Assembly: GCA_045837725.1 (NCBI GenBank)
Contig: JBEWZL010000047.1
Span: 1-64,000 of the forward strand
Source: Vermamoeba vermiformis
Lineage: Eukaryota
Direction: 5' to 3'
DNA length: 64,000 nucleotides
Shown here piece by piece: positions 20,550 through 47,513 of this stretch; the first letter of the stretch is position 1, and every line of letters starts with the position of its first letter. The notes beneath the pieces were generated by a model, which was not told where the DNA came from, made no database searches, and saw only the letters and a list, made by a program, of their open reading frames with translations. Made by a program: the position numbers and the translations under genes.

Positions 20550-22252
20550 TTACATAGTGCCTCTATTAATTAAATCAACCATAACCAAGTGTTTCATATG
20601 CGCAAACCGTTCCATAACTGCTCCTTTGGTTACATTTCCAGTAAATAGTATTCGGGTCAGGTTGGTTAATGTTGTCAAATAATCGAGGTGGTGTTCGTTT
20701 GCGATGAATCGTAATATCAGCGTGTTCAAGTTTGTTAATTTGGCCATATGCATGAACCATCCAATTGAATTTTGAGCAACGGTGTCTAAGTGTTTTAGAT
20801 TCGTAAATCTGTTTTCGAGATCCGTGCTTGAATCTTTCGGAGGCTGATCAAAAACGAGCCCCGTCAAGTTAGTTAATGTACTAAGACTATCATATAGTTC
20901 ATGTGTCACTTCTGTATTAAGATTGAGATAAACGAGGCCGGTCAGATGCGCAATGTCCAACTGCCCCAAGTCATAGGGCTCTCCATCTCCAAATACGAGT
21001 AACGACTTTAATTTCGTTAATGTTTTGATATAGGTCTCGTCTCTGTCCAAGTTATAGCGAATTTGCAAGTTTGTTAAATTTGTCAAGTGAGATAAATGCT
21101 GTGTTTGTCGGGTGCTTTCAATGATTAACTCTTGCAGTCCAGCCAAGCACGTGATATTTTCAGTGAATTCCACGACTTCGCCGGCAATTGTAAGTTGCGT
21201 CAAATTCGGTGCATTAACATAAGGCCAAAGTTGTGGTCCTATAATATCATCACGGAATGAAAATTCCGCGCTCTCGAGTGCTGTCAATGCTGTCAAAAAT
21301 GTGAAGTTTCCCTGAATGGTCGGACCACCTCCGATGGCAGTCAGTGAGAGGTCTTTCAAGTTCGTTAATGCTGCCAATTGTGAAGTAATCTGCAGTAGAT
21401 CTTCTTCGAATGCAAGTGTCAAACGTGTCAGTTTTGTATTTGCATCTAAGTGGGATATTGACGGGGCGGAGTAATTGAGGTATTCCAAATTAGGCAATAG
21501 ATATTGTGGACATCGATGACGACAGACAAATTTGGTCAAATTTTGGAATCGGCTGATAGTCGTACTGTATTCTTCGTTAAATGCTCCATCTTCGACCAAA
21601 ACCAAGGACAATTCTCGGAGTTTTAAAGGCGCAGGTATTTTTGCCAACAGATCTGCCTCTTCTCTATCCATTAATACTAAGCTCAAACTCTTAAGATTTG
21701 ATATGACTTCAAATGGTTGAGTTTCTCTCCACGAAGCAATTTTCATCTTCAATTTGGTCAAGTTGCGATAATGGGCTAACAGCTTCTCGGGATATTGTGC
21801 TCTAAGTCTGAAATATTGCAGATTTGTTAGGCTGGACAAGTGCATCCACTCGTTTGCGCTTTTCAATGCCAAAAATCGCTCCAGATGTAGACTCGTAGCA
21901 TGAGTAAGACGAGAAAGTTGTAGAATTTGTTGCATATCTCCTCTGAAGTGAGATTTGAGAAAAGTTATGCCGATGGGGTGATTGTATTGCATTAACCGGT
22001 CTATTATCTCCTCTAACGTCGATAGATCGGTCCAATAAAATATAAATGTGTCGTATTGGATTATTCTGAACCATTCTTTCGATGTGGCTCGTGCCAAGCG
22101 CTTTGATCTGTCATCCAAAATTTGTAAAATAATTTTCTTTAATTCCAAAGGCAATGAATCCTATTTTACTCGTTAGAATTTTCTTTTGAAAGCGCATTAA
22201 AATTACAATTATAATATTCTATATCCTGGTACGGTAGTGGAAAGTTTACCAT
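20550..22252 (-). CDS. F-box / leucine-rich repeat protein
   Basis: F-box DSLPLELKKIILQILD..RATSKEW followed by many LxxLTNLxxL repeats. The first coding exon is probably just ATG at 22252 followed by a GTAAAC intron. Confidence 0.85.
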
Positions 22253-24164: not shown

Positions 24165-27100
24165 ATGAACAATAAATCGCCGGTACGTACTTTTAGTTCT
24201 GAGGAAATTTTAAATCGAATTCTCTTTTAAAAAGAGAGAGAATGATTTAGGAGTGTCTTGTTAATTCATGATTTATTGCATTGTCGTTAATAATATATTA
24301 TTAATTATTTAATTTAGATTTTTACGTTGCGATCTCCCTACGACACTGTTGGACCTCTCGTTCGTGTCCAGAGCCTGAGCGTTGCCCTCAACGATAAAAT
24401 CTATTATTTTGGCGGTTCTATTTCAAGGGACGAAGTAACAACCGATGTGTCTTGTGGCACGATCAGAATATTTGACACGACATCCGGTACTTGGGCTCAG
24501 ATCGAGACAATGCCGCCCCGGCCAAAATGCAAAAGCACTAAATTGCGGGGTGTGGCAGTAGGCACAGATATTTGGGTGTTGGAAGGAGATAACTGGCATG
24601 TTTTTGACACTATCCAAAGCAGATGGCGCGACACTTCAATTCAACTCGACCAGCACGCAGCCGAACATTACGCAATCGCAGTTGTAAAGGATAATATTGT
24701 ATACTACGACAATGCACATGGCTTCGAAGATATGCACGTGGTCATTCTCGATACTACTGCCATGATCTTGCACTCACATCCGGAAAGCTATGGCAATCTC
24801 CCGTATGACCGCCGCAATCCACTTATGATAGCGCTCAATGAGGACATTATGTTCCTATACGCACCTTATGCAAGTTACGAGGACGAAAGAGCCAAGAAGA
24901 ACGGCGAAATGTTCTTCTACGAAATGAAGCAAGGCAAGTGGGCTCGTGCCGACACTTCCAAGAAGCTGAAACGAATGCAAGAATATGTGTTATATATTGG
25001 CCGGATCGAGCACCTACTCTTGTTTATGTCGAAAAGATCCATTCGGACTTTGGACTTGCGCACCTTTGCTTGGAAAGCGCATGCGATCAACGTGGATGGC
25101 ACCGCTAAAGGCCTCGTCATTCGTGTGGCAACCTTGCTAGGCGACAAGATCTACTGTTGCATGAGCAACGGAAAGGTGTGCGTCATTGACATTACGGGCA
25201 TTAAGACTGCACGAAGTCAACAGATCATGACCGGCATCATCGAACGGGCAAAAGTGCTGCTGGCCGCTATTAAGGTAAATCAAGTATTATTAATGTGGGG
25301 CGTAGTTAACACGTAATAGCGCCCTAATACAGCCGTTGATGAGTTCAGTGCCGAGCCAATCCTGGTGGACACAAAGCTAGAAGCTGTCAAGTTGGACGAT
25401 ATTAAAAGCTACAAAGAAATCCCTGCAGACTTCAAGTCATTATTTCCGCTTATCGACCCCAAGACCATCGTGTCCAACACCGTCCCCGAGCCATCAGACA
25501 CAGTGCGCATGCACAAGAACTACCTCCACTACCTCACTCTCGCATGGTCAAATCACTTCTCAGTGGTGTTGTCACCTGACATTATTTTCTTCACGATCTT
25601 GTGCGAGATTGCAGATGTAATCTTGGGTGATCCAGTTTCGTATCGACACTTGTTCACTGACTCGACTGATAAGAAAGAAATTATGTCACTGACTCACGGT
25701 GTTGAGCTCATCGATGTTACTCAGCTAATACACGGTAAGCCATAGTTTTACTTGATAATTGTAGTCAGTAGCAGCCTCTAAGAACACATAATAGGTATCG
25801 CGAAGAACGTGCCAATTGACTCGAGTATTTTCACTGCGAACTTCACGAGCAGTACAGCAGACTCACAACTCGCCATTCAGTCTGCTTTCTGCGAAACAAT
25901 GTCTGCATATTATTACTACGTTTGTGGACTCTGTGGCATTCCGCGCATCAAGGTCCTTGGTACGAAAGAAGACTGGCAAATGATTGAACAAAAAGTTCAT
26001 TGCATGCGTACTGAAGTGTTCAGTCAAGACACCACCACGACCAAGAAACTGAGCACGTATCTTTCAAAGATCGAGTCACAAGTGCGCAAAATTTACACAA
26101 CAAGAGACCCATCGTTCTGGAAAGACATGTTCTACATTGACGACTGTCAGAGCGGTCACGTCGCTGTTGTCACTGGGTGGATTGCAATGTTTTACGTCGA
26201 GCATGAGGCTGTTAGAAAGGACGGGCACACAACGTACTCGGGCAACGACTTTTACAACTACAAGTCACACATCTCAACTGTCAAGTGGAGAAACATCGAA
26301 ACAGAGCGGCAGTTTGAGCTCAAGTGTGGTCTTTTCTCGAGCAGAATTGTTAGTGGCATTAATGAGCTTGACACAAAGTATCCATGGCTTGAACCATCGT
26401 TCAGTCACGTGATCGTCGAGACTGATGGCTCAGGCAAGATGTCGCCCGAACGTTTCAAAACGTACATTGAAACTTTAGACGGAGGAGACCGCTCTCTCAT
26501 GGAATCATTCTACGAGCTGTGGAAAGACAATCCAATGGAGTTCGTGAAAGGCGATAAAGAGCTGTCATTCCGTTATCAGCTTGTTGGTATGCAAATTGAT
26601 GCGTGGAAAGAACAGTACTTGAAGACTGGACAAAGCCTACCAAGCATCGATTTAACGAAAGGAAATTGTGGCCAAGCATTAAGTTCTAAAAGAGGCTACA
26701 AAGACCTGAACAAACCCGCTGCCGAATTACTTGCGAACAAGATCTGCGAGTACTTGGCACTCGATCGACATGTCAAAAGTGTCAAATTATGCAACGGCAG
26801 AGAGGCAGCAGTACCGCTTGAAGAAGCGATAGTCAAGTCACTGATTGGCTATTCAGCACTCGAAGAGCTCAGTCTGGCTTGCATCACCACACAGCTTTAC
26901 GATTTGTTGGCACAGCTGCTAGTGCACCCTGAGTGCAGATTAAAGACGCTCAAGATTGGTGGTGACGACGGCGAAGTATTTCGCTGTCCAACACCCAGTC
27001 TAGTCAACTTTGCCGAGGCGTTATTGCAGACAAAAGCTCCATTAGAAACGCTCTTCATGATTCCATTCTCGGATGTTCGATTAGCACACTCAATCAGCCA

Positions 27101-28073
27101 TTTATGCACCAAGGCTAATGGTCTGAAGAAGTTCAAGTTGGGTTCAAAGTACACTGGGTCACTCGTCAATGTGCCCAGGATGATTTTATTGCATGGAGTT
27201 GTCACATCGAAAACAATAGAGGAAATTACTTTCTTTGATATCGGACAACAAGAGGTGATTCAAGACAATAAGAAGCAGTTTGTTCATGTGCTAGATGACG
27301 AGTTGATGGAGTTCATCGTTACCAATTTGCAGCAAAACCCTTCACTGAAGGTCATTAGCAACCTTCACGTGTTATTCAAAGAAGAACAAATGTCACGAGT
27401 TCTGAGAATTCCAACATTACGAGAGATAGACACATTTTGGACAAAAGACTTGTCGTTCTTAACCGTGACAAGACAGCTCGAAAAAATCAAAGTCACCTTG
27501 ACCGATTGCACTGCCGAGCATGCGGAGTACTTGCGAGAGTTTTTGGCCGATGAAAATTGCACGCTGAAAGAGCTGGATTTATCATGCAGTGAGTTTAATG
27601 CGCACCCTGAAGCTATCACTATTATTGCTCGTGGCTTCTTAAAGAACAAATCACTACAAGCGATCACTTTGGACAGTATCCAAACACACCAAAAAGTTGA
27701 TGATGAATTGTGTGAATTGCTGACACAGTGGATTGAACGAGAAGACTGTACTTTGGTCCAAATTAGCTTTTATGATCGAATTTTTGAACACACTCACGTG
27801 CAAAGAATTCTCACGGCACTGCACTACAACAAAATCATGACCAGCTTTAAGGCGTCAATGAGGATAGCTGCCTTTGGAGAGTGCCAGTATCTCATGGGCC
27901 TTCTTGCCGATAATACGACATTGACTAGTGTAGGAACCTTTTCAATGCCTTGGTCGCGTCAGTCTTTGAACGTCGCTGATGAACAACTGGAGGCTTTGAA
28001 AGCTGCAGTCAAGGCCAGAACTGACTTGAAGTGCACATTTGATTCGGATTTCATTAAGAACCAATACTACTAA
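24165..28073 (+). CDS. Kelch beta-propeller + DUF4419-like domain + RI-type LRR protein, copy A
   Basis: ORFs 24327, 25365 and 25809 join in frame across short GT-AG introns (~25274-25319, ~25735-25793). Kelch: KIYYFGG..IFDTTSGTW. DUF4419: LAWSNHFSVVLSPD, CGIPRIKVLGTKEDW, SGH..VTGWI. LRR: CTLKELDLS, NKSLQAITL. Confidence 0.85.
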
Positions 28074-28279
28074 ATGCAATCAATTACTATTCTTGTTAAA
28101 AAGGTGAGTAGATGTCAATTTAAAGAACCAATCGTTTGTCCCAACAGACCAAGGCTGACATTTTTTAGGTGAAATCTTAGCCATTTGCGATTGCGTAGGA
28201 CTAATGCTCTTTGGATGCGCAGGGATATGACTCACTTTGGCTTAACGCCGCTGTATGAAGAGAACAAGGAGCTACTCGA

Positions 28280-29996
28280 CTATTGATCAAACAGCCTTTG
28301 ATGTTTGATAATAAAGTGAACGATTGTCACTCGTTTGGTTTTATTACGATTCTTGAAGACTACTGCAAATATGACGTGTCAAATTTGATCTCGTATATTT
28401 CATTGCCAGATAGACTGAGGGCTTTGTTGTCATTAATGATGAAAATATCTACTATCAAGTCGTTGATGTAACCAATAATCGTTCGTTTGCTGATCGAAAA
28501 GAAAACTTGACGAGGATTGTGTTTGTGGTAAGTACGCCACGTTATCATGTCTCCATTTAACCAACGAAAAAAGAATGCACGTTCTGGCAAGCTGATCGAG
28601 AGGTAGGGGTCAGGCAAGTGCTCGATTTTGTCTGGCATAGTGTTTGTATCTTCTACGTGGGTAGTCGACAATTCATTGGTCAGTTCACGAACGGTGAATA
28701 CTCCAGATTCTGAGAAAAAAGTTTAGGTTAAAACCGAATACAGTCGTGGTCTTACTTGAAAATGTGCAGTAATATGGTGAGCCTGGGAATACAACAAGAT
28801 TATCCCAAGCTTCAATTTTCACTTCTTTAGGTGGTTGTTGCTGATAGAATTGGCGGTGTACAATTTTCCGCGAATTGACATCGAATATTGCTAGTGCCAT
28901 AATGGGATCCCAAAATATCTTCAAGTAGGACCCATTTTCATTCTCGAATAGCTGCATAATGCCACTGAAACGGTCTGTTGGCTTTTCATTAAGCTGCCCA
29001 TTGTAAAGTTCAATTTTTTTCAGATTGATGCAATCGATCTCGAATATTGAGTAAGTTGCATTCACTAGGTCATGACTAAGGACGTATGCGACAGGTCTTA
29101 ATGACGATGGTACGTAGTCTAAAGGATCTGAAAAATCGAACGTAGCTACGTCGTACGCTGTTGTTATTGATCGGAAATTTAACTTCGCAGAATTATTCTC
29201 TTCGTCTTCCGTCCACAAGATCCAATTATCACCTAGCAAAGTACGTAAGTATTACAAATGAGAGCAGAATTATATTCTACGTACCATATACCATGCGATC
29301 TGTTGGTGGATGGTTACTTAGGCACGTGACATCTCGTTCATGAACCAAAACATCCCCTTCAACGCGGAAATATTTCATGGTACTTTTGTTCGAGGAAAGC
29401 AATCCGATCGTCTGATCTATTAGTATACGGCTTATATTAGACAGTCATAAGAATAATACTATGTAAAGTACTTGCCGGCAAAGTTAAAAACGGGTTAAAA
29501 ACGACTAAACTCGGTAGCCTTGTTGTTATTAACGCTTTTGTTGCGTTGTATACAATCAAATCTTTGGCTAAAAATAAAAATAAATCTTTTCTCCATGGAA
29601 CTTGAAAGCTTCTCAATCGTGTGTTGTGTGGATTCAAATCTGTCATAGCGAAGTAGGAGACTGAATGTCCTTCGTCCACGAGCGAATCTATCACAATAAG
29701 ACGCAGGAATTGTTGGTTCATATCTTCTTTTAATACGTCGGTGTATGACAGTGGGAATGCTGATTGGATGCGTTTAATCCAGGCGAAGCTAAACGGATCA
29801 GACAACCACGAATTGAACGTTTTGCATACTGTCCGCAATATAAATATTCTCTTGATCGACAGAAAAATAGTCACGTTGAGAAACGCGTCTTTGCTGGAGA
29901 ATAAAGCATTTTCAGATCTGCTCGGCAGGAAAAAATTAGAGAAATCTAATTTAGTGGTGGTATTATACTCCTCAATTTTACTTACGTGTGTTCCAT
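28280..29996 (-). CDS. F-box protein with divergent beta-rich C-terminal region (multi-exon; 3' end uncertain)
   Basis: MEHT|SENALFSSKDAFLNVTIFLSIKRIFILRTVCKTFNSW is F-box-like; downstream ORFs are linked by GT-AG introns. Confidence 0.65.
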
Positions 29997-30125
29997 AAAT
30001 CGTGTTGAATCGCTAACTTGTCAGCACCTGAATGGTGCGCTCTGTTGAGGGCGCGTCAGAAAAAAATAAGAAAAAAAATCAAGCCTACATTCTCAATCTA
30101 GATTGTCTAACCAATTATTAATTCA

Positions 30126-31062
30126 ATGGAGACTACAGCAGTTAACGCGTTAACGATTTCGTTAGAGGCACTGCCACGGGAGCTGTTGTCGTATTGTTTT
30201 AGCATGTTATCCTCAGATTATTTCTATGGGGACCTATGGCGCATCGGACTCGTGAGTAAAGTATGTTTAGAGCAGATAAATGATGTCAAGAATCGATTCC
30301 CCCAAAAAATGCGTGGTAAGTCAGAATGGATTTTTTCTTGATCGGATCTCACTTCCATTATTTTTTAATATTATTTTCTTCCTGAAAGTGTATATAAGAT
30401 ATGAAATAACTAAGACTAGTTACATTATTAACTTTGTACGTTAATTATTAATCAATTATTTTTTCAGTCGATCCAAGCGAATTTGAAGCGAGTGTGCTAC
30501 AAATCTTAAGGACTACAATAGCAGTCGATGATATAAAGTGTAAATTGAAAGCACATATGCGGCGTTACAAGTTTCCTGCGCTCACAAAACAATACCAAAA
30601 AGAATGCAACCAGTGTCGAGCTCCAGTGACTTGCTTATTGCAGTGTAGGTGCTATTTATAATTACTAGCGCATTTAAAGCACTTTTTTAATAATACCATA
30701 AGTTTCTTATCGATTGCGTTCAATTTTTTCACGCTTGATTGACTGGGTTACTTTAGTGGAGAACACTTACGAAGAAAAAGGGGATCGATTTGAAATGCGT
30801 ACGTATTAAAAGAGTTGGTGGTCGTTCACTGAATTAAGTTCATGAATCATTTGTAGGCTGGAGACAAGAAGCCATGAACTGGTGTTCCGAGAAACACAGT
30901 TTAGTATTGACTACTTATACTCGGATAAAAGGATACTATATGTGGGAGTATTATGACGATTCGTATAAGAGGCATAAAGTGCTCACCGTCGATGAGGCAA
31001 TCAACGAGATCATTCAACGGCGGACTACGATATTACAGATTCACCCGGAGGGAAAATCCTGA
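30126..31062 (+). CDS. Small F-box protein (multi-exon)
   Basis: LEALPRELLSYCFSML..LWRIGLVSK F-box; a CNQC motif in exon 2. Confidence 0.7.
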
Positions 31063-31976
31063 TAAATTCATGTAGTGATAAATTTAAGTCTTTACTTTTT
31101 TTGGTTTTCACAACCAGTTTCTCGTAATACAAATTTTCAGGAAATAAGATTGTTAGCATTTGTTCAAGCTTATTCTGAAATATTGGTTCGGCATGACTGA
31201 GAGTAACTAGCATACTTTGACTATGTCAGGTCGTTTTAGTGAAGAGCGGTAAATTTGCAAGTTGTATAAAATCAACGAAGGGAATGCTGGTGATTTAATT
31301 CTTTCGGCCAATTCTGAAACAAAATTGTTCTCTTTCTCAAACGTTATGGAGTTGATGTCAAAAGGCTTCGGTATTGCAGGCACTGTTTTTTTAAGGGATT
31401 CCATTACAACGCTCGACCTGGTGCTGCTGTATGGTTCCTATGTGTGATACACTTAAGAAAATGTCGAGTCTAACAATACAATCCGCGGATTTCTCATTTG
31501 CATTTCCAAAAATTCTTCCATTCTTTTAAGCACATTTTGCAAATTTTCTGATTTAAAATTAAGTTAATTGCCCGTGCCAAGATACTAGTCGTACCTGCGA
31601 TGGCTGTATCAACAGTTTGGTTATCTGTTGCACCTTCAACAATAATTTAGCGCTGCTGACAAGGAAACTACAACAAATACGTACGTATACCGAGAGACTT
31701 CTGTACGGCATTCCACAACTTTTTTGTCTTTCCGGTCGGAACTCCGGGAAGAATTGAAATTAGTTCCGATAAACTTGGCACTGGCGGATCAAAAAGGACA
31801 TCGCCGTCGATCTGTTGCTTGATCAGAATTTCGGCGCTCTCTTTAGAGAATTTCAAAACTTTTGTCGCCCACACAGCCACCTGCTTGTGATGCCAATCAG
31901 GCCTTGGTAGGGTGTCTTTAGTTATATTGGCGTGCGCCCATGCCTCAAGTTGCTCCTCAGACCAGTCAAGAGGCAT
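31025..31976 (-). CDS. SAM-like header protein, paralogous to the N-terminus of the 55-57 kb Crinkler-type gene; possibly truncated
   Basis: DWHHKQVAVWA..ILIKQQIDGDVL..GVPTGKTKKL is SAM-like. Short exons follow, ending KRPDIVK; the 3' end overlaps the F-box gene. Confidence 0.55.
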
Positions 31977-32467
31977 ATCTGTCGCAGATTTTAGTTTTGT
32001 ACAAAAAGGACCTTATTTCGGATTTAGCTTTAGTTAATTCGATTTTGGGCATTTGATTATTTAAAATAATATTTCTACGTGAAGGATAGAAGCCAGGATT
32101 TAATTGAAATATGAAAGAAGATTCGGATTCAAATTCTTGGGCAGACAAGTCTAATTTCTCGTCGTAGAAGATGTTGGAGAGATGTGTGACGTACGAAAGT
32201 AATAGAATATTATTATTTGATTTAGTAATTATTGGTAGCCACCAATGGAATTTTGGATCGATAAAATTAATTACCTTGGTCGTTTTGTTCCATTACAAGG
32301 CACTATATATAAGAAAATATGCTTGAAATACTTCTGTGGTATCCAACAACAAAGTGGAGATAGAAACGTTCAAAAAATGGCGCGATTTGATTTAAGCTTT
32401 TGCTTGGACAAATTGTCGCAAATTGCGCAACTTTGTCAAATTTTACTGAAGAAACGTAACAAGCACA

Positions 32468-33883
32468 ATGAATAACAATTCAAGGCCTGCAAATCCTTAT
32501 GACCCGCAGTTACAGCGCGCAATTGCCATGCAAAGGTTCCATGCCTCGCGTGAGATCAAGGTTGTTATTTGGAGCTTGAAAATATAGCTTTAAAACAGAT
32601 CTAGTACCACTGTACATTTATTGTTTTACCTTTTTATTCGACAAAAGGACGCCAATATGGAAGATCTCCTCGAGGAAGTAGAAAAACAGACAAAGATCCC
32701 AGAAGACGAAGACATTGGCGAGAAAATTACTATCGACACTCCCATTTCAAATAATAATATCGGGTATAAATTATTGGTACGTAATAGAATTTTTAGCTAT
32801 TTTTTGAATAGTTTTTTGCGTTTCGTGAAAATTTTCACTACATCTAGCGCAAGGATTTGGACTTTCACGATTCAAATTATACATAGGGACCTCAGGTGAC
32901 GAAGGTGTTAATTTAATACGCCTGAGTTAGCGTCTCGGTTCCCAATATTTTTATTACCTTGGAATTCGGATCTCACAAAAAGACACTGTAATTCCTTACA
33001 TTTTGTTCTGTATTAATATTTCTTGCTGTAATAGATGAAAATGGGCTGGAAAGAAAATACTAGTCTCGGCAAACGATCAGGTATCGTGGAGCCGATCAGA
33101 TACGACTTTAAAGCCGACGCTTGGGGCTTAGGCATGAAAGAAGATATTGATGAGCATACTAATCCTGAGAATATTAAACGGTACGTTATAATGGTCATAT
33201 ATGCATAGTCTATAACGAAAAGGTTTGCGCTTCGTACCGAATCTTCAAAACACGGATTAATTTTTGAATTAGACGTGCTTTAACGGTTGAAATGGACATG
33301 GAAAAACCAGAAAATGTGCAAATTATCCAAAAAAGGCAAGAAGCTATTGAGAAGAAAGAAGAGATTCAGAAGACAGTTCAAGAAATGCTAGATCCGTTCT
33401 ACTGCAAGCTATGTAGCAAAGGTTATAAGCGCATCGATCAATATAACGAACATCTTAGTTCATATGACCATAATCATCGTCAGGTAAGCAAATTACGTAG
33501 GATCCAAATCCGTGATCGATCCCGCTTCTTGCCACGGATCTAACCTTCTTCCCTAGCGATTGCGAGATATGCAAGAAATGACCAATACATACAAGAATAC
33601 GAGCTCTGAAGAGGTCAAGAAGCGAGAAGAAAAGGAGTTACAGAAACTTTTGTCTCGTGCTCAAAAGTTGCAGCAGATGCAGGGTGGAAATTCAACAAAT
33701 TCCGATAATAATAATACAGCGCCTCCTTTACCCGAAGAATTACCGCCACCGTTACCTCCGACACCAGTTAACGCTAGTGGACAGCCTGCGCCAGCAGCGC
33801 AGATGAAATTCAGTTTGAAAGCAGCGCCGAAAAAAGCAGCGCCTAAAATCAACGCATTTAAAGCTTTTAGCGACGATGATTAA
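32468..33883 (+). CDS. G-patch + U1-type C2H2 zinc finger protein (GPATCH8-like)
   Basis: NNIGYKLL|MKMGWKENTSLGK..GIVEPI..GLG; FYCKLCSKGY..QYNEHLSSYDHNHRQ. Confidence 0.9.
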
Positions 33884-34160
33884 GCAAGGACTTTTAACAC
33901 TCAGCAAGCCACGAATTCGAAACAGCGCGCGTCGAAATTTCTATTCGATCTGAAGAGCCAAGCCGATCCTCGAGTTCCCTACACCAACTGGCTTTATTAT
34001 CGATTAACTGTACATAAATAAAGCCGCAGTATGTGGTTCCTAGAACAATTTTGATACTGGCCAGGGGTCGGTACGATTTTTGAGATAAGGTACATATTGG
34101 CAGTTACGATAGCAAGAATTACAAATCTTTTAATTAATACTATATACAATGTTGCTGTAT

Positions 34161-37100
34161 TTAATAATAATCTTCATCATTTTTGGGCGATTTGTTCTCA
34201 TCCGTCGACGTGAAATAACTAACAAATTCAACTAAGTTGTTATTGGCCCTAATTGCCGCTACAAGTGGAGCCTTTTGTTCGGCAGTAAAATTCGTTTGAA
34301 CGCTCAGTAATTTGATGTGCGTTAGGGAAGTGTTTTTGCGAATGAGTTCTGTGAGCAGATCTAGCTCGGGAAGTTCCATCATAACTGCAATCTTTAGCCA
34401 CTTGATCTTATTACTACTCGCTAATGCTGCAAATATATTTCGCAAATTTTCCCCGAAAAAGATTAACCGGTTGCTTTCGTAAATGTCCGAGAGGTCCAAG
34501 TATTCGATATTGCAGCCCGGTTGGCTCAACCAATCAGAAATCGCCTCCATTAGCTCACGCACATTCGAGTCGCCCTTAATGACTGCATGATTAAGATCGA
34601 GCGTTTTGAGCGATGTGTTGTTCCAAAAAGCCTTCGCAAGAGCAGATCCAGCTCCGTACTCCAACTCGGCACGTGGAAGTTCCAACGACTCCAACTTTGA
34701 ATCTTCGCGTGAGATTAAATTTGCTAAGTGTTTCATTTGTTCTGGCGTAATTTGTTTAAGTTCAGCATTCAATTTTTCGAGTTTTGTAGTCACTGCCAAG
34801 AACGACAGATCCGTCAAAGTTATTCGACCGAGATTTCGCAATGAAGGTATACTTAGCATCCTTGACGTTGATAGTGGATCGGTCATATAGCGCCAATGGG
34901 TGATAGTTTGTAACGACGTTTTTTGTGGTAATTTTTGCACGAGAAGTCTGGTCAGATCTCGATCCACCACTTTAACAAACTCCGTACGACCATCATCAGT
35001 AGTGACCCGCTTCATTCCAAGGTCATTTGGGGCTATGGTCTCCAATGTCTTCGATTCTGCAATTCCTCGAAGAATTTCAATTTCGCAATCGGAGGATTCC
35101 GTACCGCGAATAGTTGCAAAGTGTTTCAATCCGTTCTCTTTTCTGCAAAGATGAGAAATTGCTTTAGCCAACTCCAAGTTATCTATTTTGTCGAATATAA
35201 GTGTTTCTAAGGGCACCGTAGTAGTTGTAAGTGCTTTAGCAAGTGGTGTTCGATCCGGATTCCAGTCCTCCAGATCTTTGTTTTGAATATGGATTTTTTG
35301 TAACTGACATTTCGGATGCATTAAAAATATCGCTAGTTTTTCATAAGCATCGGTATAATCTCCAGTAATAATCAACTCTTCAATTCTGCTCGGATCTTCC
35401 ATTTTGGTCAAAAATTCAATTATTCTGCCTTCAATCAATCCTAATCTGCCGCCCAAATTAATACTCTTAATCTCGTTATTGAAATTCAAATATTCTTCGA
35501 TTTTTTGCGCTAACGCATTCAACGCTATTCTATTCTCGTCTCTAATCTCGCTGTAAAATTTCAACGCTAGTCCACTGGCACCAGTTGATAAATCGAGGCT
35601 AGTCATGCCCACGCCTTCTTGCGTATACTTTTTCATCCACGTGTCAATTTGACGGGTGACAAGCTGGAACCGAAAATCAACTTTTTTCGGCCCCTCTGAA
35701 ACTACTTCGATTGGATCGTCTTTCAAAACCTCGTAGAGCTCGTTCATTAATTTTCTGTCTTCTCCTTGCAAAGTTTCATCAATGTACTTCTTGAACTGTT
35801 CAGGTGTCATCTTGCCACTGCCATCAGTCTCAACGATCACGTGACTGAACTGAGGTTCGAGCCACGGATACTTGACGTCATCGTCGCTGTCACCACGCAC
35901 AACATTGCTGTACAACAGTCCGCTCTTGAGTTCAAAGTGTCGTTGAGTCTCGGCATTGTGCCACTTGACCGTTGAAATGTGTGACTTGTAGTTGTAAAAA
36001 TCATTGCCTCCGTACTTCAGCACACCGTGTTCTTTGTACGCACATCCTTCGCGATAAAACATGACGATCCAGCCTTCGACGACATCAGTGTGACCTGACA
36101 TGCATCTATTGATCGAGAACATGTCTTTCCAGAACATCGGATCACGTGTCGTGTGGATCTTGTGCACTTGTGTTTCAGCGCGCTGAAGATAAGCGCTCAT
36201 CTTTTGTGCAGTGGTCGTGTCTTGATTGAACACTTCAGTGCGCATGCGATGAATCTTGTGTTCGAGTGTCTGCCAGTCTTGTTTCGTGCCCAACACTTTC
36301 ACTCGGGGAATGCCACACAGCGTTGAAATGTAATAGAAGTACGCTGACATGGCCTCGCAGAACGCTGCTTGAATGGCCAAACGAGATTCCACTGTGCTGC
36401 TTGAAAAGTTTGCTGTGAAGATACTCGCGTCGATGGGCATATTCTGAGCAATGCCTAAACAATACACGTGTTACAATAAGATCGAATAGTCTTGTAATCG
36501 TATTAGATTGCCGTCTAGTATTGTAATGTAAAGTAAAGTCTATAACTGTATAAGCAAATAACGCACGTGTTACAATTCAAGTAATTCGAATTGATCTCGC
36601 AATCATAAAATAGTGCTGTCTAGCCTTACCTTCAATGACTTGATTAAGATCTATTTTGGTAACGTCGGTTGTAATAGTCATAATTGGCTTCTTTTCTGTT
36701 GAATTAGTGAACAGATGTCGGAACACCTCCGGATCGGACAAAATCTCGTCTGCAATCTCGCAAAGTACCGTATAGAAGATCATATCTGGCGAGATGACCA
36801 CTGAAAAGTGGTTGGACCAAGCGAGCATGAGATAATGCATGAGATTTTGGTGCAAATACGTGGTGTTTGAAGGTTCGGGCACTGCGTTCTCGATGATTTT
36901 TGTTTGTTCGTCAAACTTCGGGAACAACTTCGCAAAAGTAGTTGTCATTTGATAATGAATTTTCACATCATTCAAGTTGACGGGGTCTAAGCCAGCGTCA
37001 ATCGTGATTGGATCCGCTTTGAATTCTTGCGGAACCACAATTGGGCGCTAAAGCCAATTAGTCAATAGTCATATAGTAAGTACTTTGATACTTACTTTAA

Positions 37101-38127
37101 TATAATCTAACGCTGTTTTCGCTACTTCAGCTAATCTTTGATCAATTTGGCTTTGTTCTTCGGGACTCGGAGTTTTAATGTCCAAGACTCCCATTTGACC
37201 GTTTGCCAGCCAACAGTAAATCCTATCACCAATCACCCTTGCACTCGTAATAATCGTATCTTTGTCACATGAGAGCTTGTGTGAGTGCCAGGTCATCTTT
37301 TCGAGATCCAAGATCCGAAGCTTATTTCTTTCGTTGGGGCTAATAGGCACGAATATCATTTGTGCACCTACTTTTCCAGCATAATTATATAAGTCTATAT
37401 TGATTCTATCTTCATTAGCCGATTCTTTTGCACGCGCCCATTTGTCCTCTTTCAAGTCATAGTACAACACTTCACCAAATTCGCTCGCAAGTTTTGTATC
37501 ATAGTATGGATAGGGGGCATAGAGTAGTATAATATTGTCGGATAGTGAGGCCAAAAAAGTCTTTGTACTGCGCTCTTGTGGGTGCTGACCAATCCCTTCT
37601 TCCGCGCTCGTTGAAATTTCATTCGTTGATGTGTTGAACCGATACACTTTCTTTTCGAGTGACGAACTAAAGTTATCATAGTAATATATTGTATCGCCAA
37701 CAATACCAAATGCATGAATATGGTACAGCTTGCTATGAGTTTTAACCTGGATTTGGCGCCATTGTTTTTGAACGGTGTCGAAACAAGACCATTTATCGTC
37801 TGATAGGACCCAAATATTAGTGCCTATCACTGCGCCTTGAATATACTCCGAGTTGTAAGCAAATGGTGGCGTCGTTTGAATGGAGGACCAAGTACTAGAT
37901 TTGGTATCAAAGACTGAAATTACGGCAGAAGCTGTTTCTTTGGTATTTTCTGATATTCCACCAAGGTAATATATATTTTCGCCGATGGTAACGGCAAGAC
38001 ACCTCTTTCGTGGCGATGGCGCAGATCCGTTGGTTTGGATCAGTCGTAAATTAAACTGTAAAATTTTTTAGATTAGTCTCCTAGGTATTTTATATCATTT
38101 GTAAGTACCAACGTAAATAATTAACAT
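34161..38127 (-). CDS. Kelch + DUF4419-like + LRR protein, copy B (start uncertain)
   Basis: Exon from ~38056: APSPRKRCLAVTIGENIYYLGG..VFDTKSSTW. Same intron positions as copy A. LAWSNHFSVVISPD, CGIPRVKVLGTKQDW; LRRs NTSLKTLDL, NIEYLDLS. Confidence 0.85.
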
Positions 38128-38403
38128 TTTTACAATTTTTCTGAGCGAAATTGAATTTAAAGACTAAATCCACGTGCGCGACTACGCGTGGCTTTTTAGT
38201 AATAAAGATATATTAATTGCTTACTAAATCGATTAACTTACTGAAGAAATATTTTCCATTTAATGCATGCAACGCTTGTACACAAATCAGAAAAAAATGA
38301 AAAAACGCTTTTGTGCTGTTGTTCAGGACTTTTTATTTTGCTGTTTATACGTAAAAGCAATAGTAACGCTAACTAGACGAATTGCCGTAAATGATTTAAC
38401 GCA

Positions 38404-40409: not shown

Positions 40410-41064
40410 ATAAATCTATCTGGCCACATATCTTCGATCTGTTTAGGTGCGTAATTGAATATCAGTTTTACCTCATTAATTACCAAATCGTAGGAGTAAT
40501 AATGGCTTGCTTGAAAAGATCCAGCCTCCTACTGAATTAGTAATGGCTCGCGGTCTCCACCAAAGTTCGAACTACTATTCGTTGTACTCTTCTCGGAGCG
40601 CGGTCTATCGCTAACCATTTACTTATTTGGGCCGATTTTATAACTAAAATAGAGAACTCGGAATAAATAATGTAAATGTCCGAGTGAATTTCCAAGGTCT
40701 GAATTTAACTCGAATGCTGGGCCAAAAGGGAAAGTAATTGCTAGCAATTGGAAAAAGGAACAACTGTCTGGCACCGGTTATTAGATCTGCAGTGATTTTC
40801 TTTACGCATTTTTCAAAATTTACCTAGATCCGAGCAAATTCATAACCAACTGATACCGAAAGTGTAACACCGTTTCATATCGAAGATCAGATTGATTCAC
40901 AAATTTGCGTAATAGGCGTAAGAAAGCGTAACTTCGCTCAGATAGGTACCTTGATGTCATGTGATCGTGCGCAGTTTTTCCAAATTTGGAAATCGAAAAA
41001 AACCTTAAATTGTCCGATCAACGCAACATCTTTCAGTTCACAAACAAACACTCCTATGAACACA

Positions 41065-42118
41065 ATGCGTCTTCTAACTTCAATATTTTTATTGGCTGTA
41101 ATCTCAGTCAGCACCGCTCAGTTCACGACTCTGACCCAAGTGATCAAGTCCGATCCAAACTTTTCTACGCTTTATAGCCTGCTTCAAGCTACTGGTTTGG
41201 ACCAGACGTTGGATGGATCCGTTTTATTCACCGTCTTTGCTCCTAACAACAGTGCATTCGATGCTTTGCCTCCCGCCACTCTGAAATATTTGCTCGATCC
41301 CGCCAACGGAAATCTTCTTAGCAGCATTATTGAATACCACGTAAGCAATCTCATATTAAAATGCTCCGTAGTTTTAATTTCAACCTTAGGTCGTCCCTGG
41401 AGCTTTGCCGTCATCTACGCTTGCGAATTACAACGGCAACAGTCTGGTTACGGCTCAAGGCAGCTCTATCAACCTTGATGTAGGCAGTCCCTACAGTAAC
41501 TTCAATCCCTTCTCTATTTCCTTGAACAACGCACGTGTCATCAAGGCCAACGTTGAAGCATCGAACGGAATCTTGCATGCGATCGACAAAGTTTTGCTCA
41601 ACGACCTCAGATTCTTCCAAGCAGCTCCTAATAACCTCTACACCCTTGTCTCTCAGAACCCTAAACTCAAAACTCTGACGGTCTTGTTGGATATGACCGG
41701 TTTGGCTCAAGTGTTGCAGGCTCCTAACGGACAATACACCCTTTTTGCTCCGACCGACGATGCCTTTACTGACCCTGTTTTGACTTCTATCGGTAGCAGC
41801 CAGGCTGTTCTAAAGAGCATTGTTTTGTACCACGCGATCGCAGGGTGAGTACATCCAGAATTTCCGGAAATTCGATTCAGTTCTAACATGTTCATTAGTG
41901 AACCAGTGTACTCAACTAGCCTTTACGATGGATTGCAAGCTTCTTCTATTAACGCTAACAACAACAACAACATTCGTCCTTTAACTTTCAGACGTCTTTC
42001 GTTCCCCGGTGCTGCATCCGTCACTGTGAACGACGCCAACATTTTAACCGCTGATAACCTTGCATCCAACGGTGTCTTGCACATTATCGATCGCGTCCTC
42101 CTGCCCTACTCCACCTAG
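41065..42118 (+). CDS. Secreted fasciclin (two FAS1 domains)
   Basis: Signal peptide; FTVFAPNNSAF..YHV..ASNGILHAIDKVL and YTLFAPTDDAF..YHAI..ASNGVLHIIDRVL. Confidence 0.95.
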
Positions 42119-45723: not shown

Positions 45724-46968
45724 TTAATTGTACATGAGCGAGGCGAGATCCGGCTTGATGTACGGCAGAGGCATTCCACCTTCAACGGCAGCAACAGCTT
45801 CTTGAGCATCAGAAGTGCGATGAGCAATGAAGTATTGTTGCAGAGTAGCGGTGCTGACGTTGCGATTAGCAGCTCTGAATTTTCCAACTTTTTCGACGAA
45901 ATCAGCGGTCAGATCTGCACCAGCTTCAGGATAGAATTGCTTGAACATCAATTCGATTTGTTCGTCGGTAATAACTGAAGGGTATTGCAAGTGCATGTCG
46001 ACTCGGCCAGGACGGATCAAGGCAGGATCCAAACGATCAATGTGGTTTGTAGTCAATACGAAGATAGAAGCGTCTTTGCCACCAATGCCGTCCAAAGCAT
46101 TAAGCAAGCCGCTGAAGGACAAAGGAATATTCTCGAGCTTGCTTCGATCGGCGGTAAAAAGCGCATCCACGTCTTCCAAAACAACCACGCAGTTCTTCGG
46201 TACGCGTTGCAAGGCCTTCTTGAGCGCAGAATCGGTCATATGAGGGTCTGAAATATGCAAATAGGCAACGTGGCGGTCAATGTGAGAAGCCAAAGCCGAG
46301 ATCGTGGAAGTCTTGCCGGTACCAGGCGGGCCGTAGAGCAAATAAGATCTCTTGTAGGGAATGCCATGCTTAGCGTACCATCGAGCAGTATCTTTTTCGA
46401 GGAAATTGTTGACGTCGTCGAGAAGCTTTTGTTTGAGAGCGGCAGGCAAAATGACAGTTTCCATATCTCGTTTGCGCTTGACGATAGACTTGGGCCAATA
46501 TTGATTATCAATGTCGTAAGAGTAGATGTTGATGAGGGCCTTATTGACTTTAGTATCCCATTCGCTGACTTTATCGACGAATTTCTTCAGCAGATCTTTC
46601 TTGCGAGTTCCTTCGACGACCAGGACCAAGGTTTGTAGGTAAACTGCGGCACTAAAAGTACCAACGGGCTTGCCGTGCACGGTATGAATCACATGAATAG
46701 TCTCAGATTCATATTCAATTTTGAAAGATCCGAGGCCCAAAACTAATCTGCATCCGTCTTGTTTAGTGTCTTCAACTTCGTCATCGTCGTTGCTTTCTTG
46801 AGCACCCATGCGAAGACTATTATCACAATTGCATACGTCAGTCAAATACTTGCAAACAGCAGCGTAGATCTGCTCGTTAGATTGAATCTCCAACGAAGTG
46901 CAACTGTTGGGATCCAGCTGAAGAGCCTTGACCTCTTCCAAATTGAAAGGATATCTTGTGGTGTTCAT
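45724..46968 (-). CDS. BCS1-like AAA+ ATPase (intronless)
   Basis: WY..HGIPYKRSYLLYGPPGTGKTS, VVLEDVDALF, LSFSGLLNALDG, TTNHIDRLDPALIRPGRVD; first ATG at 46968. Confidence 0.92.
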   Translation of the reverse strand: MNTTRYPFNLEEVKALQLDPNSCTSLEIQSNEQIYAAVCKYLTDVCNCDNSLRMGAQESNDDDEVEDTKQDGCRLVLGLGSFKIEYESETIHVIHTVHGKPVGTFSAAVYLQTLVLVVEGTRKKDLLKKFVDKVSEWDTKVNKALINIYSYDIDNQYWPKSIVKRKRDMETVILPAALKQKLLDDVNNFLEKDTARWYAKHGIPYKRSYLLYGPPGTGKTSTISALASHIDRHVAYLHISDPHMTDSALKKALQRVPKNCVVVLEDVDALFTADRSKLENIPLSFSGLLNALDGIGGKDASIFVLTTNHIDRLDPALIRPGRVDMHLQYPSVITDEQIELMFKQFYPEAGADLTADFVEKVGKFRAANRNVSTATLQQYFIAHRTSDAQEAVAAVEGGMPLPYIKPDLASLMYN

Positions 46969-47513
46969 TGTTGATATCTTGATTTGAATAAACTGTTCTT
47001 TTTCACAGCATTTTATTCCTTTGGCCACAAAATCTATCGCATTTTTTTCTGGCCGGCAGTTAGTGTCTTTACACGAAGAAAATTCGTGCCCACACCGCAA
47101 TGTGTACTGATTCCTATCCTTACAGTATACCGCGTTAGCACGTTCTAACACTTTTCTCTTAATATTAAGCAAATCGAAAGATTTTTCCGTGCTCAGAAAA
47201 TGGATGTAGGATCAGCCAAGCCAAGTTGATTCAATAATTACATGATTAATTTAATTAATATATTTTAGACTATATTACGCTGTTTGACGGAAATTAAATG
47301 TAAGTAAAATTTACATTATATTAAATCCGTTGTAAGGAATGCAAATCAACGCCCTCCCTAAAAAACTCATCGTTATTGTTGACCCGATTCAAGTCATTAA
47401 ATTACTTTAAAATCCAAAATAATTGCTCGATCGAGCGACCGGTTGTCAACAAAAAACACTTGGAATCATGATAAATGTTGTATTATTATAATTATTATTT
47501 TACAATTGAGTAT

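Follow-up and report, generated by a model that had tools for sequence, protein, structure and literature searches.

DUF4419 (Pfam PF14388) is known mainly as a stand-alone protein of protists, bacteria, giant viruses, entomopoxviruses and LbFV. The first-pass annotation of the DNA studied here considered it a domain without assigned function, and this agrees with the available parts of the literature found by family name or Pfam accession, where no function is given and the domain is mentioned only in passing (PMC5381508, PMC7125106). We describe two paralogous genes of Vermamoeba vermiformis in which the domain is instead embedded between an N-terminal Kelch propeller and a C-terminal horseshoe of leucine-rich repeats (LRR). 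They lie in a window of 64,000 nt (contig JBEWZL010000047.1), to whose positions all coordinates refer. The His, Cys and Gly positions invariant in the stand-alone proteins are common to the core of the window proteins. The Kelch-DUF4419-LRR architecture is real and undescribed, and it is built from known domains; nothing on it was found in the available parts of the literature returned for amoeba, LRR, Kelch and NLR-like terms.

Four described groups of proteins resemble the window proteins in part. The receptors of the nucleotide-binding LRR (NLR)/STAND group (NLRP14, NLRP3) have a C-terminal LRR of the ribonuclease-inhibitor class and of similar length, in a multi-domain cytosolic layout with a conserved centre. 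The window proteins differ from them by having no NACHT or NB-ARC P-loop NTPase and no CARD, PYD, TIR or coiled-coil effector, and their N-terminus is a Kelch propeller. ROCO/LRRK-type proteins of amoebae and animals likewise place a conserved core, enzymatic or regulatory, between an LRR and a beta-propeller. That order is reversed in the window proteins, with the propeller first and the LRR last, and their core is DUF4419 and not Roc-COR-kinase. We rejected membership in both the NLR and the ROCO/LRRK groups since the defining NTPase is absent. The ribonuclease inhibitor gives the best structural superposition, with the whole target covered, and is matched directly by the sequence of copy 2; however, it consists of an LRR alone (~457 aa), whereas the LRR of the window proteins is the C-terminal third of a larger protein, with repeats irregular enough to escape the Pfam LRR models. 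Finally, the Kelch substrate receptors of the KLHDC2/KLHL20 type correspond to PF24681, the best Pfam family for the window propeller, but in the window proteins no BTB, BACK, F-box or SOCS-type box was found that would link them to a cullin ligase.

We suggest, with moderate confidence, that the window carries a pair of old genes encoding cytosolic Kelch-DUF4419-LRR proteins of ~1220-1230 aa, in which the core would act and the repeats would select its partners or restrain it.

Structure and splicing of the two loci

Gene models were made by reading the DNA and testing the spliced frames by script. Six stop-to-stop open reading frames (ORFs) were found where the first-pass annotation had placed them, at 24318-25316, 25320-25745 and 25782-28073 on the + strand (copy 1) and at 37069-38067, 36577-37047 and 34161-36470 on the - strand (copy 2). 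The annotation had proposed that the three ORFs of each locus are spliced into one protein with the domain order given above. The single protein and the order stand, but each gene has four exons and not three, the first being only 18 nt long. Copy 1 gives one open frame of 1222 aa from the exons 24165-24182, 24318-25274, 25320-25734 and 25795-28073, its introns measuring 135, 45 and 60 nt. For copy 2, the exons 38259-38242, 38055-37096, 37047-36630 and 36454-34161 join into one open frame of 1229 aa after removal of introns of 186, 48 and 175 nt. The GT..AG rule holds for all six introns, and the three junctions are common to both copies, at alignment columns 35, 370 and 511 and with phases 0, 0 and 1.

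The genes converge tail to tail, with stops ending at 28073 and 34161 and 6087 nt between them, as expected from the earlier description of two intact paralogs with the same introns facing each other around a 6-kb block. They are 43% identical overall (44% over 760 residues of exon 4, 35% between the Kelch propellers), a divergence by which we judge the two paralogs to be old. A tblastn search of the window with three full-length relatives as queries found only these two loci and no third copy. The loci have a G+C content of 0.41-0.45, which differs little from the 0.36-0.45 of the remaining window. For the Vermamoeba genome, the accessible part of a published description gives 41.7% GC and 3.5 introns per gene (PMC7125106).

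The start of copy 1 at 24165, as previously annotated, fits the model: exon 1 (24165-24182, + strand) consists of an ATG and 5 further codons (MNNKSP) followed by the donor GTACGT, and this N-terminus resembles those of P0010 and P0047 (P-numbers are relatives, as cluster representatives, from the protein search; X-numbers are sequencing runs and L-numbers metagenome or viral loci). The start of copy 2 had been placed at 38127, and this position had to be replaced. The ATG at 38127 is in frame only with a poor donor, while an ATG at 38259 with the donor GTAAGT gives a proposed exon 1 (38242-38259, - strand) encoding MENISS, a beginning similar to that of copy 1, P0010 and P0047. On this homology the copy 2 locus probably extends to 38259.

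We conclude from sequence comparison that each gene is spliced from four exons into one protein, the comparative evidence being the stronger. P0010 is an uninterrupted product of 1226 aa (Kelch, DUF4419, PF27087) on a contig of 3738 nt, which has no room for introns since 1226 codons and the stop take up 3681 nt. P0047, also uninterrupted, has 1265 aa and is 60% identical to copy 2. Both are colinear with the two loci over every exon. Other members of their 90% clusters, on contigs of 75-498 kb, are split ORFs. The alignments of two split pieces, of 287 and 331 aa, end at residues 337 and 360, which is exactly junction 2 of the window genes, and the split C-terminal pieces begin downstream of junction 3. 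The three-ORF layout is seen again in a metagenome locus (L001, 59% identity). Since intron 3 cuts DUF4419, exons 3 and 4 must be joined to form a domain.

Contigs of run X10, which is only guessed to be RNA, are ~97% alike and overlap parts of three exons, exons 3 and 4 in copy 1 and exon 4 in copy 2. Synonymous changes account for 9 of the 13 changed codons, although this is weak evidence since the contigs are of low depth. Shares of the DNA were also recorded in water, aquifer and biofilter metagenome runs, from which no habitat is inferred.

Domains and constraint in the predicted proteins

The Kelch beta-propeller occupies exon 2 in both genes (24318-25274, + strand, copy 1; 37096-38055, - strand, copy 2), a single exon between two phase-0 introns (135 and 45 nt in copy 1, 186 and 48 nt in copy 2). 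Matches to PF24681 (cut-off 50) reach 51.3 bits in copy 1 and 65.8 bits in copy 2, those to Kelch_1 (cut-off 20.1) 24.0 and 33.3 bits, and copy 2 also matches Kelch_2 with 40.9 bits. Exon 3 encodes a conserved N-terminal strand and linker followed by the N-lobe of DUF4419, and ends at a phase-1 intron. In copy 1 (25320-25734, + strand, then the 60-nt intron) the Pfam match covers profile positions 7-58 with 28.6 bits, and in copy 2 (36630-37047, - strand, then the 175-nt intron) positions 3-73 with 30.3 bits, against a cut-off of 25. The C-lobe (profile positions 91-254 for the two copies) opens exon 4, with 74.9 bits in copy 1, where it spans 25795-26426 on the + strand (end approximate), the exon-4 model showing its strands and helices as far as residue ~210, and 76.3 bits in copy 2. 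In the uninterrupted relatives the whole domain scores 96-116 bits. Thus the Kelch propeller and the DUF4419-like centre named by the first-pass annotation are both above the Pfam cut-offs, the latter in its two parts, and the core also shares the invariant His, Cys and Gly positions of the family.

Downstream of the C-lobe of copy 1, a helical connector (approximately 26445-26627, + strand; helices 217-277 of the exon-4 model) leads to the LRR, which lies at 26643-28073 with the stop codon at 28071-28073. In copy 2, the C-lobe, connector, LRR and stop are all in exon 4 (34161-36454, - strand), the LRR being roughly at 34200-35590 by alignment with copy 1. The ribonuclease-inhibitor type assigned to these repeats from the letters alone is borne out by the family profile, by the AlphaFold model and by Foldseek. 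With a profile built on 11 family members, 78 PDB sequences were matched at E≤1. NLRP14 (7e-15) and ribonuclease inhibitor (2.4e-14) head these matches, which also include CARMIL/LRRC16A (2.4e-8) and tropomodulin (1.1e-4), and for none of the 60 PDB matches listed does the best stretch fall in the DUF4419 region. Searched alone against the PDB sequences, copy 2 matches ribonuclease inhibitor at 2.1e-5. The AlphaFold model of exon 4 of copy 1 (predicted local distance difference test, pLDDT, 84.6; predicted template-modelling score, pTM, 0.73) has ~16 alternating strand-helix units in residues 283-748. Foldseek gave 190 matches to this model at E≤0.001, among them CARMIL (5.7e-9) and, in the lead, NLRP14 (2.2e-10) and ribonuclease inhibitors, the last with template-modelling (TM) scores of 0.60-0.71 of the target, E-values of 1e-9 to 1e-7 and the whole target covered. 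The precomputed family PF27087, named LRR_TMOD-LMOD in the Atlas, is carried by 5 of the 11 relatives; the Atlas look-up, made for P0003, scored at most 0.82 and was used solely for this name.

No Walker A motif ([GA]xxxxGK[ST]) occurs in either spliced protein, in P0010 or in P0047, and neither spliced protein has a transmembrane-like stretch. In the six ORFs and the full-length relatives, Pfam found no NACHT, NB-ARC, AAA, Roc, COR or kinase family and no BTB, BACK, F-box or SOCS-type box. With NCBIfam only two Kelch-type matches appeared, both sub-threshold. PADLOC gave no family for the 5 proteins scanned, which says little about a eukaryote since its library is prokaryotic.

The core is the most constrained part of these proteins. 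Among copies 1 and 2, P0010 and P0047, identity is 62-75% in the DUF4419 core, compared with 35-56% in Kelch, 40-47% in the linker, 41-53% in the connector and 29-58% in the LRR. The same ranking was found among orthologues that are 95-96% identical, which differ by 2-4 changes per 145-176 residues in the C-lobe of the core, 20-24 per 461-475 in the LRR and 5-15 per 273-311 in Kelch. Across 135 sequences, fused members included, H68, P75, C175, G184 and G241 are invariant and H54, E85, D188, W189, C238 and S240 nearly so; the motifs CGIPR and SGH are invariant in the family alignment of 11 rows.

A model of the stand-alone relative P0092 (pLDDT 75.9, pTM 0.77) has two lobes with a low-confidence linker between them, and intron 3 of the window genes falls in this linker. 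Sequence-profile searches of the PDB found no relative of the core. One such search (with alignment A3) returned a 'cytochrome c555 trimer' at 8.7e-6, which we rejected as summed noise on a triplicated chain, since no single stretch passed alone.

A two-copy prediction of the P0092 core scored 0.54, versus 0.00 for the best of 3 controls, and passes the mark for self-association. This mark is reached by 20 of 30 solved same-chain pairs and 1 of 23 solved single chains from microbes, and by 17 of 29 pairs and 0 of 30 single chains from eukaryotes, counts that are only rough since our own alignment was used. At least 89% of the contacts agree between the two-copy runs, with a partner pLDDT of at least 75. 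The predicted interface sets the C-lobe of one copy (residues 173-316) against the N-lobe of the other (1-174), and because it joins C-lobe to N-lobe we treat the prediction as weak. The closest predicted contacts are between the strand after H68 and the strand after C175, and between residue 62 and residues 235 and 246, near C238, which suggests that in the model the invariant His and Cys line the interface of the lobes.

Relatives, tree and viral counterparts

Among 8000 scored candidates, 11 relatives were found at E≤0.001, all from JGI or Logan and either unnamed or called 'hypothetical'. Different large contigs carry the clusters, and related organisms therefore seem to have several paralogs in each genome. 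Three clusters are devoid of Kelch and begin with a Met directly ahead of the linker, namely P0034 (924 aa), P0054 (860 aa) and P0069 (885 aa), whose contigs measure 2.7-4.0 kb.

When P0034 was searched exhaustively against 1.84 billion cluster representatives, 2390 matches reached E≤0.001, of which 638 passed E≤1e-10 and 115 passed E≤1e-30. In the best 150 DUF4419 relatives, 130 have 270-480 aa, 8 are shorter, 1 has 555 aa and 11 exceed 600 aa. This is in line with the earlier statement that the domain mostly stands alone, as are the viral loci described below. The long forms outside the close family (P0075-P0079 and P0081) have only DUF4419 in Pfam. By hhalign, the C-termini of P0078 (96.6%), P0077 (93.8%) and P0079 (93.6%, E 2e-7) match the family LRR profile, that of P0081 does so weakly (57.8%, E 1e-4), and P0075 and P0076 have no such match at this end. 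Neither P0079 nor P0081 has an N-terminus related to Kelch (probability <1% against the Kelch profile). Together with the three clusters devoid of Kelch, they make the 'sensor-core-sensor' layout of the first-pass annotation too narrow for the family.

Further searches were negative: no match was found among proteins of 1337-3815 aa with P0003 as query, among proteins of 2215-5000 aa with alignment A2 (an uninformative result), in the metagenome scan with P0010 alone, or in prokaryote genome contigs with alignment A3. The fused genes are a small, lineage-restricted family.

We built a tree of 86 DUF4419 cores by a quick search, supported by the Shimodaira-Hasegawa-like approximate likelihood-ratio test only and taking every second stand-alone match. 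One starred group (95) unites all 10 fused rows with the 3 long rows and a short metagenome ORF; within it, the window copies, P0010, P0047 and P0034 are a clade of 5 rows (99). LRR support exists for 7 of the 10 fused rows (P0081 only at 57.8%), and P0054 and P0069 have no LRR call of their own. From this distribution, DUF4419-LRR appears as the constant unit of the fused clade, having arisen once in this sample, and Kelch as a one-exon addition between phase-0 introns, carried by a sub-clade. The short metagenome ORF (L002, 1312-2373, 353 aa, on a contig of 2434 nt) groups with the LRR-bearing P0054 at 100 support; it probably represents a single exon of a fused gene and not a genuine stand-alone DUF4419. 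Viral sequences make up nine rows, which are dispersed over the stand-alone part of the tree with 8 changes for 9 rows, a number as low as this being reached in 132 of 500 shuffles.

Against predicted viral structures, the core model gave 14 Foldseek matches at E≤0.001, down to 1e-19, in Pithovirus, Fadolivirus, Marseillevirus, Yasminevirus, Edafosvirus, Tupanvirus, Orpheovirus, two entomopoxviruses and LbFV. DUF4419 was also found on ten viral contigs of 4-416 kb, seven of them longer than 100 kb. In nine of the ten it is an ORF of 319-386 aa, and the remaining one (L006, 3404-4972) has 521 aa on a 230-kb viral contig with a G+C of 0.65. In the parts of the papers available, LbFV ORF1 is listed with DUF4419 in a table (PMC5381508) and one DUF4419 gene is considered as possibly exchanged between Vermamoeba and Catovirus/Tupanvirus (PMC7125106). 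The labels 'inhibitor of apoptosis' and 'eEF-3 like' attached to poxvirus members were set aside as unverified database names. The apoptosis label of the entomopoxvirus members could not be traced to an experiment; the available part of PMC11074647 applies the phrase 'apoptosis inhibitor' to another protein.

A different kind of contact with viruses may be seen at 45724-47211 of the window (- strand), where an ORF of 495 aa has BCS1_N, AAA and BCS1 lid domains. Its nearest Atlas clusters (0.97-0.99) are mostly of Nucleocytoviricota, with one haptophyte-rich, and this BCS1-like gene may have been exchanged with giant viruses.

Possible roles and neighbouring genes

In the reading that we favour, the conserved DUF4419 core would carry an activity common to the family, probably ligand binding or catalysis at a His/Cys-lined site between the lobes, perhaps as a dimer. 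The faster-evolving LRR and Kelch surfaces would choose protein partners or targets, or hold the core in check, and the paralogs would perform the same act on different partners. We infer this division of labour from the anatomy of the proteins and from the pattern of constraint. Host-virus conflict is no more than a candidate for the process involved, put forward because giant viruses and insect DNA viruses also have the core as a stand-alone protein.

Several observations weigh against this interpretation. Repeat domains usually change faster, and the divergence of LRR and Kelch is no proof that partners have diversified. No solved structural relative of the core appeared, none of at least 500 Foldseek matches reaching E≤0.001 and the best TM being about 0.1. 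The two-copy prediction was computed on the stand-alone P0092 and not on the window protein, and the predicted dimer contact may be an intrachain contact of the lobes that was reassigned, or a domain swap. On the side of the LRR, the local Pfam copy found no LRR family in either C-terminal ORF, and copy 1 alone had no match to PDB sequences at E≤0.01. The clusters devoid of Kelch could in part be incomplete gene calls. The tree has no bootstrap, three of its rows are on long end branches and 36 of its 83 inner branches are unresolved. As for the transcripts, no record that bridges an intron of either gene was seen among the X10 records listed. The RNA raw-read runs X18-X20, under the same species label, yielded 22, 23 and 18 reads and none spanning a junction; they are silent on the junctions since the reads are mostly partial and 95-99% alike.

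Other explanations should be weighed against the division of labour proposed here. The lack of a junction-spanning read from this organism would fit the idea that each locus has three independent genes, or the remains of a decayed one, and that the fusion is an artefact of reading across gaps. However, we give it almost no chance: six canonical introns keep the frame at homologous positions in copies only 43% identical, uninterrupted relatives of 1226 and 1265 aa exist, exons 3 and 4 cannot function apart when intron 3 splits DUF4419, and the differences to the close relative are mostly synonymous. It could also be proposed that the locus is a piece of giant-virus DNA that became endogenised, and that the genes came in as viral cargo and did not arise in the host. 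Three spliceosomal introns in each gene argue against it, as do the G+C of the loci, close to that of the rest of the window, the absence of relatives in the viral contigs scanned with the family alignment, and the fused cores forming a clade of their own, apart from the viral rows. In its favour are the stand-alone DUF4419 genes common on giant-virus contigs, the neighbouring BCS1-like AAA ORF with its mostly Nucleocytoviricota clusters, and the possible transfer of a DUF4419 gene between the amoeba and Catovirus/Tupanvirus (PMC7125106, in its available part), and we regard this origin as very improbable. A role as cytoskeletal or trafficking regulator has a slim chance. Kelch proteins often bind actin, and here the Kelch propeller and a tropomodulin/CARMIL-like LRR would bind actin or its regulators, with DUF4419 as a structural spacer. 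In favour of this role, PF27087 (LRR_TMOD-LMOD) is carried by five relatives, and CARMIL and tropomodulin are among the matches of the profile and CARMIL among those of Foldseek. Nevertheless, NLRP and ribonuclease inhibitor are matched more strongly, the CARMIL and tropomodulin matches reflect the LRR class rather than function, and a spacer would be neither the most conserved part nor the carrier of invariant His and Cys.

We consider unlikely, too, that the proteins are NLR-like receptors in immunity or signalling, in which LRR and Kelch would sense non-self, DUF4419 would replace the NTPase as a switch or oligomerising hub, and the viral DUF4419 proteins would be candidate antagonists. The repeats belong to the LRR class of NLRP proteins, with NLRP14 leading the profile search, but ribonuclease inhibitor, CARMIL, tropomodulin and flagellar proteins have LRRs of this class too. 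Several paralog clusters exist, with a conserved core and variable repeats, although the family is small (11 clusters) and not massively expanded. The core fold in 14 viral proteins (E≤0.001) and on 10 viral contigs would suit a conflict with viruses, and yet the viral rows of the tree lie dispersed over its stand-alone part, none of them adjoining the fused clade. Self-association of the core, predicted on a rough benchmark, would suit an oligomerising hub. No P-loop or NTPase family, no death-fold or TIR effector domain and no PADLOC match was found. The analogy with NLR receptors drawn by the first-pass annotation is therefore reduced to the layout, with no Walker A, NACHT, NB-ARC or AAA and with a propeller as the N-terminal module in place of a death-fold or TIR effector. 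It is conceivable, although distinctly unlikely, that DUF4419-LRR proteins, with or without Kelch, are an NTPase-free cytosolic surveillance class of free-living protists, the variable repeats detecting viral or bacterial proteins and the conserved, self-associating core passing on or carrying out the response, and that the stand-alone DUF4419 proteins of giant viruses and insect DNA viruses are captured blockers that pair with the host core.

DUF4419 is widespread and recurrent in giant and insect DNA viruses, yet has no solved structural relative. A core wired to two protein-recognition modules offers a handle, as the partners of LRR and Kelch should point to its process, and the invariant His and Cys are direct targets for mutation. 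If the process is defence, the proteins would represent an NTPase-free receptor architecture in protists; if it is not, they would be a tidy case of accretion of exon-sized domains, with Kelch as one exon between two phase-0 introns.

The block between the 3' ends of the two genes (28074-34160, 6087 nt) contains, on both strands, small spliced genes unrelated to the family. Spliced joints were seen there in run X10 at 30798-30857, 31631-31683, 31978-32275 and 33481-33555. A small spliced gene at 33035-33883 (+ strand) encodes a G-patch domain (9.1e-7) together with a C2H2 zinc finger of the jaz type (1e-4), both within 33035-33543, and its GT..AG intron of 73 nt (33482-33554) is seen as a joint in X10. 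Weak, sub-threshold F-box matches were found at 20550-22160 (- strand, E 0.0059), 29437-30012 (- strand, 0.023) and 30111-30341 (+ strand, 0.03-0.035), and these ORFs around and between the copies may be a diverged F-box family, or noise. Beyond copy 2, two ORFs in overlapping frames at 40846-41848 (+ strand) have a Fasciclin domain each (1e-14 and 2.5e-22) and are probably one multi-Fasciclin gene split by an intron.

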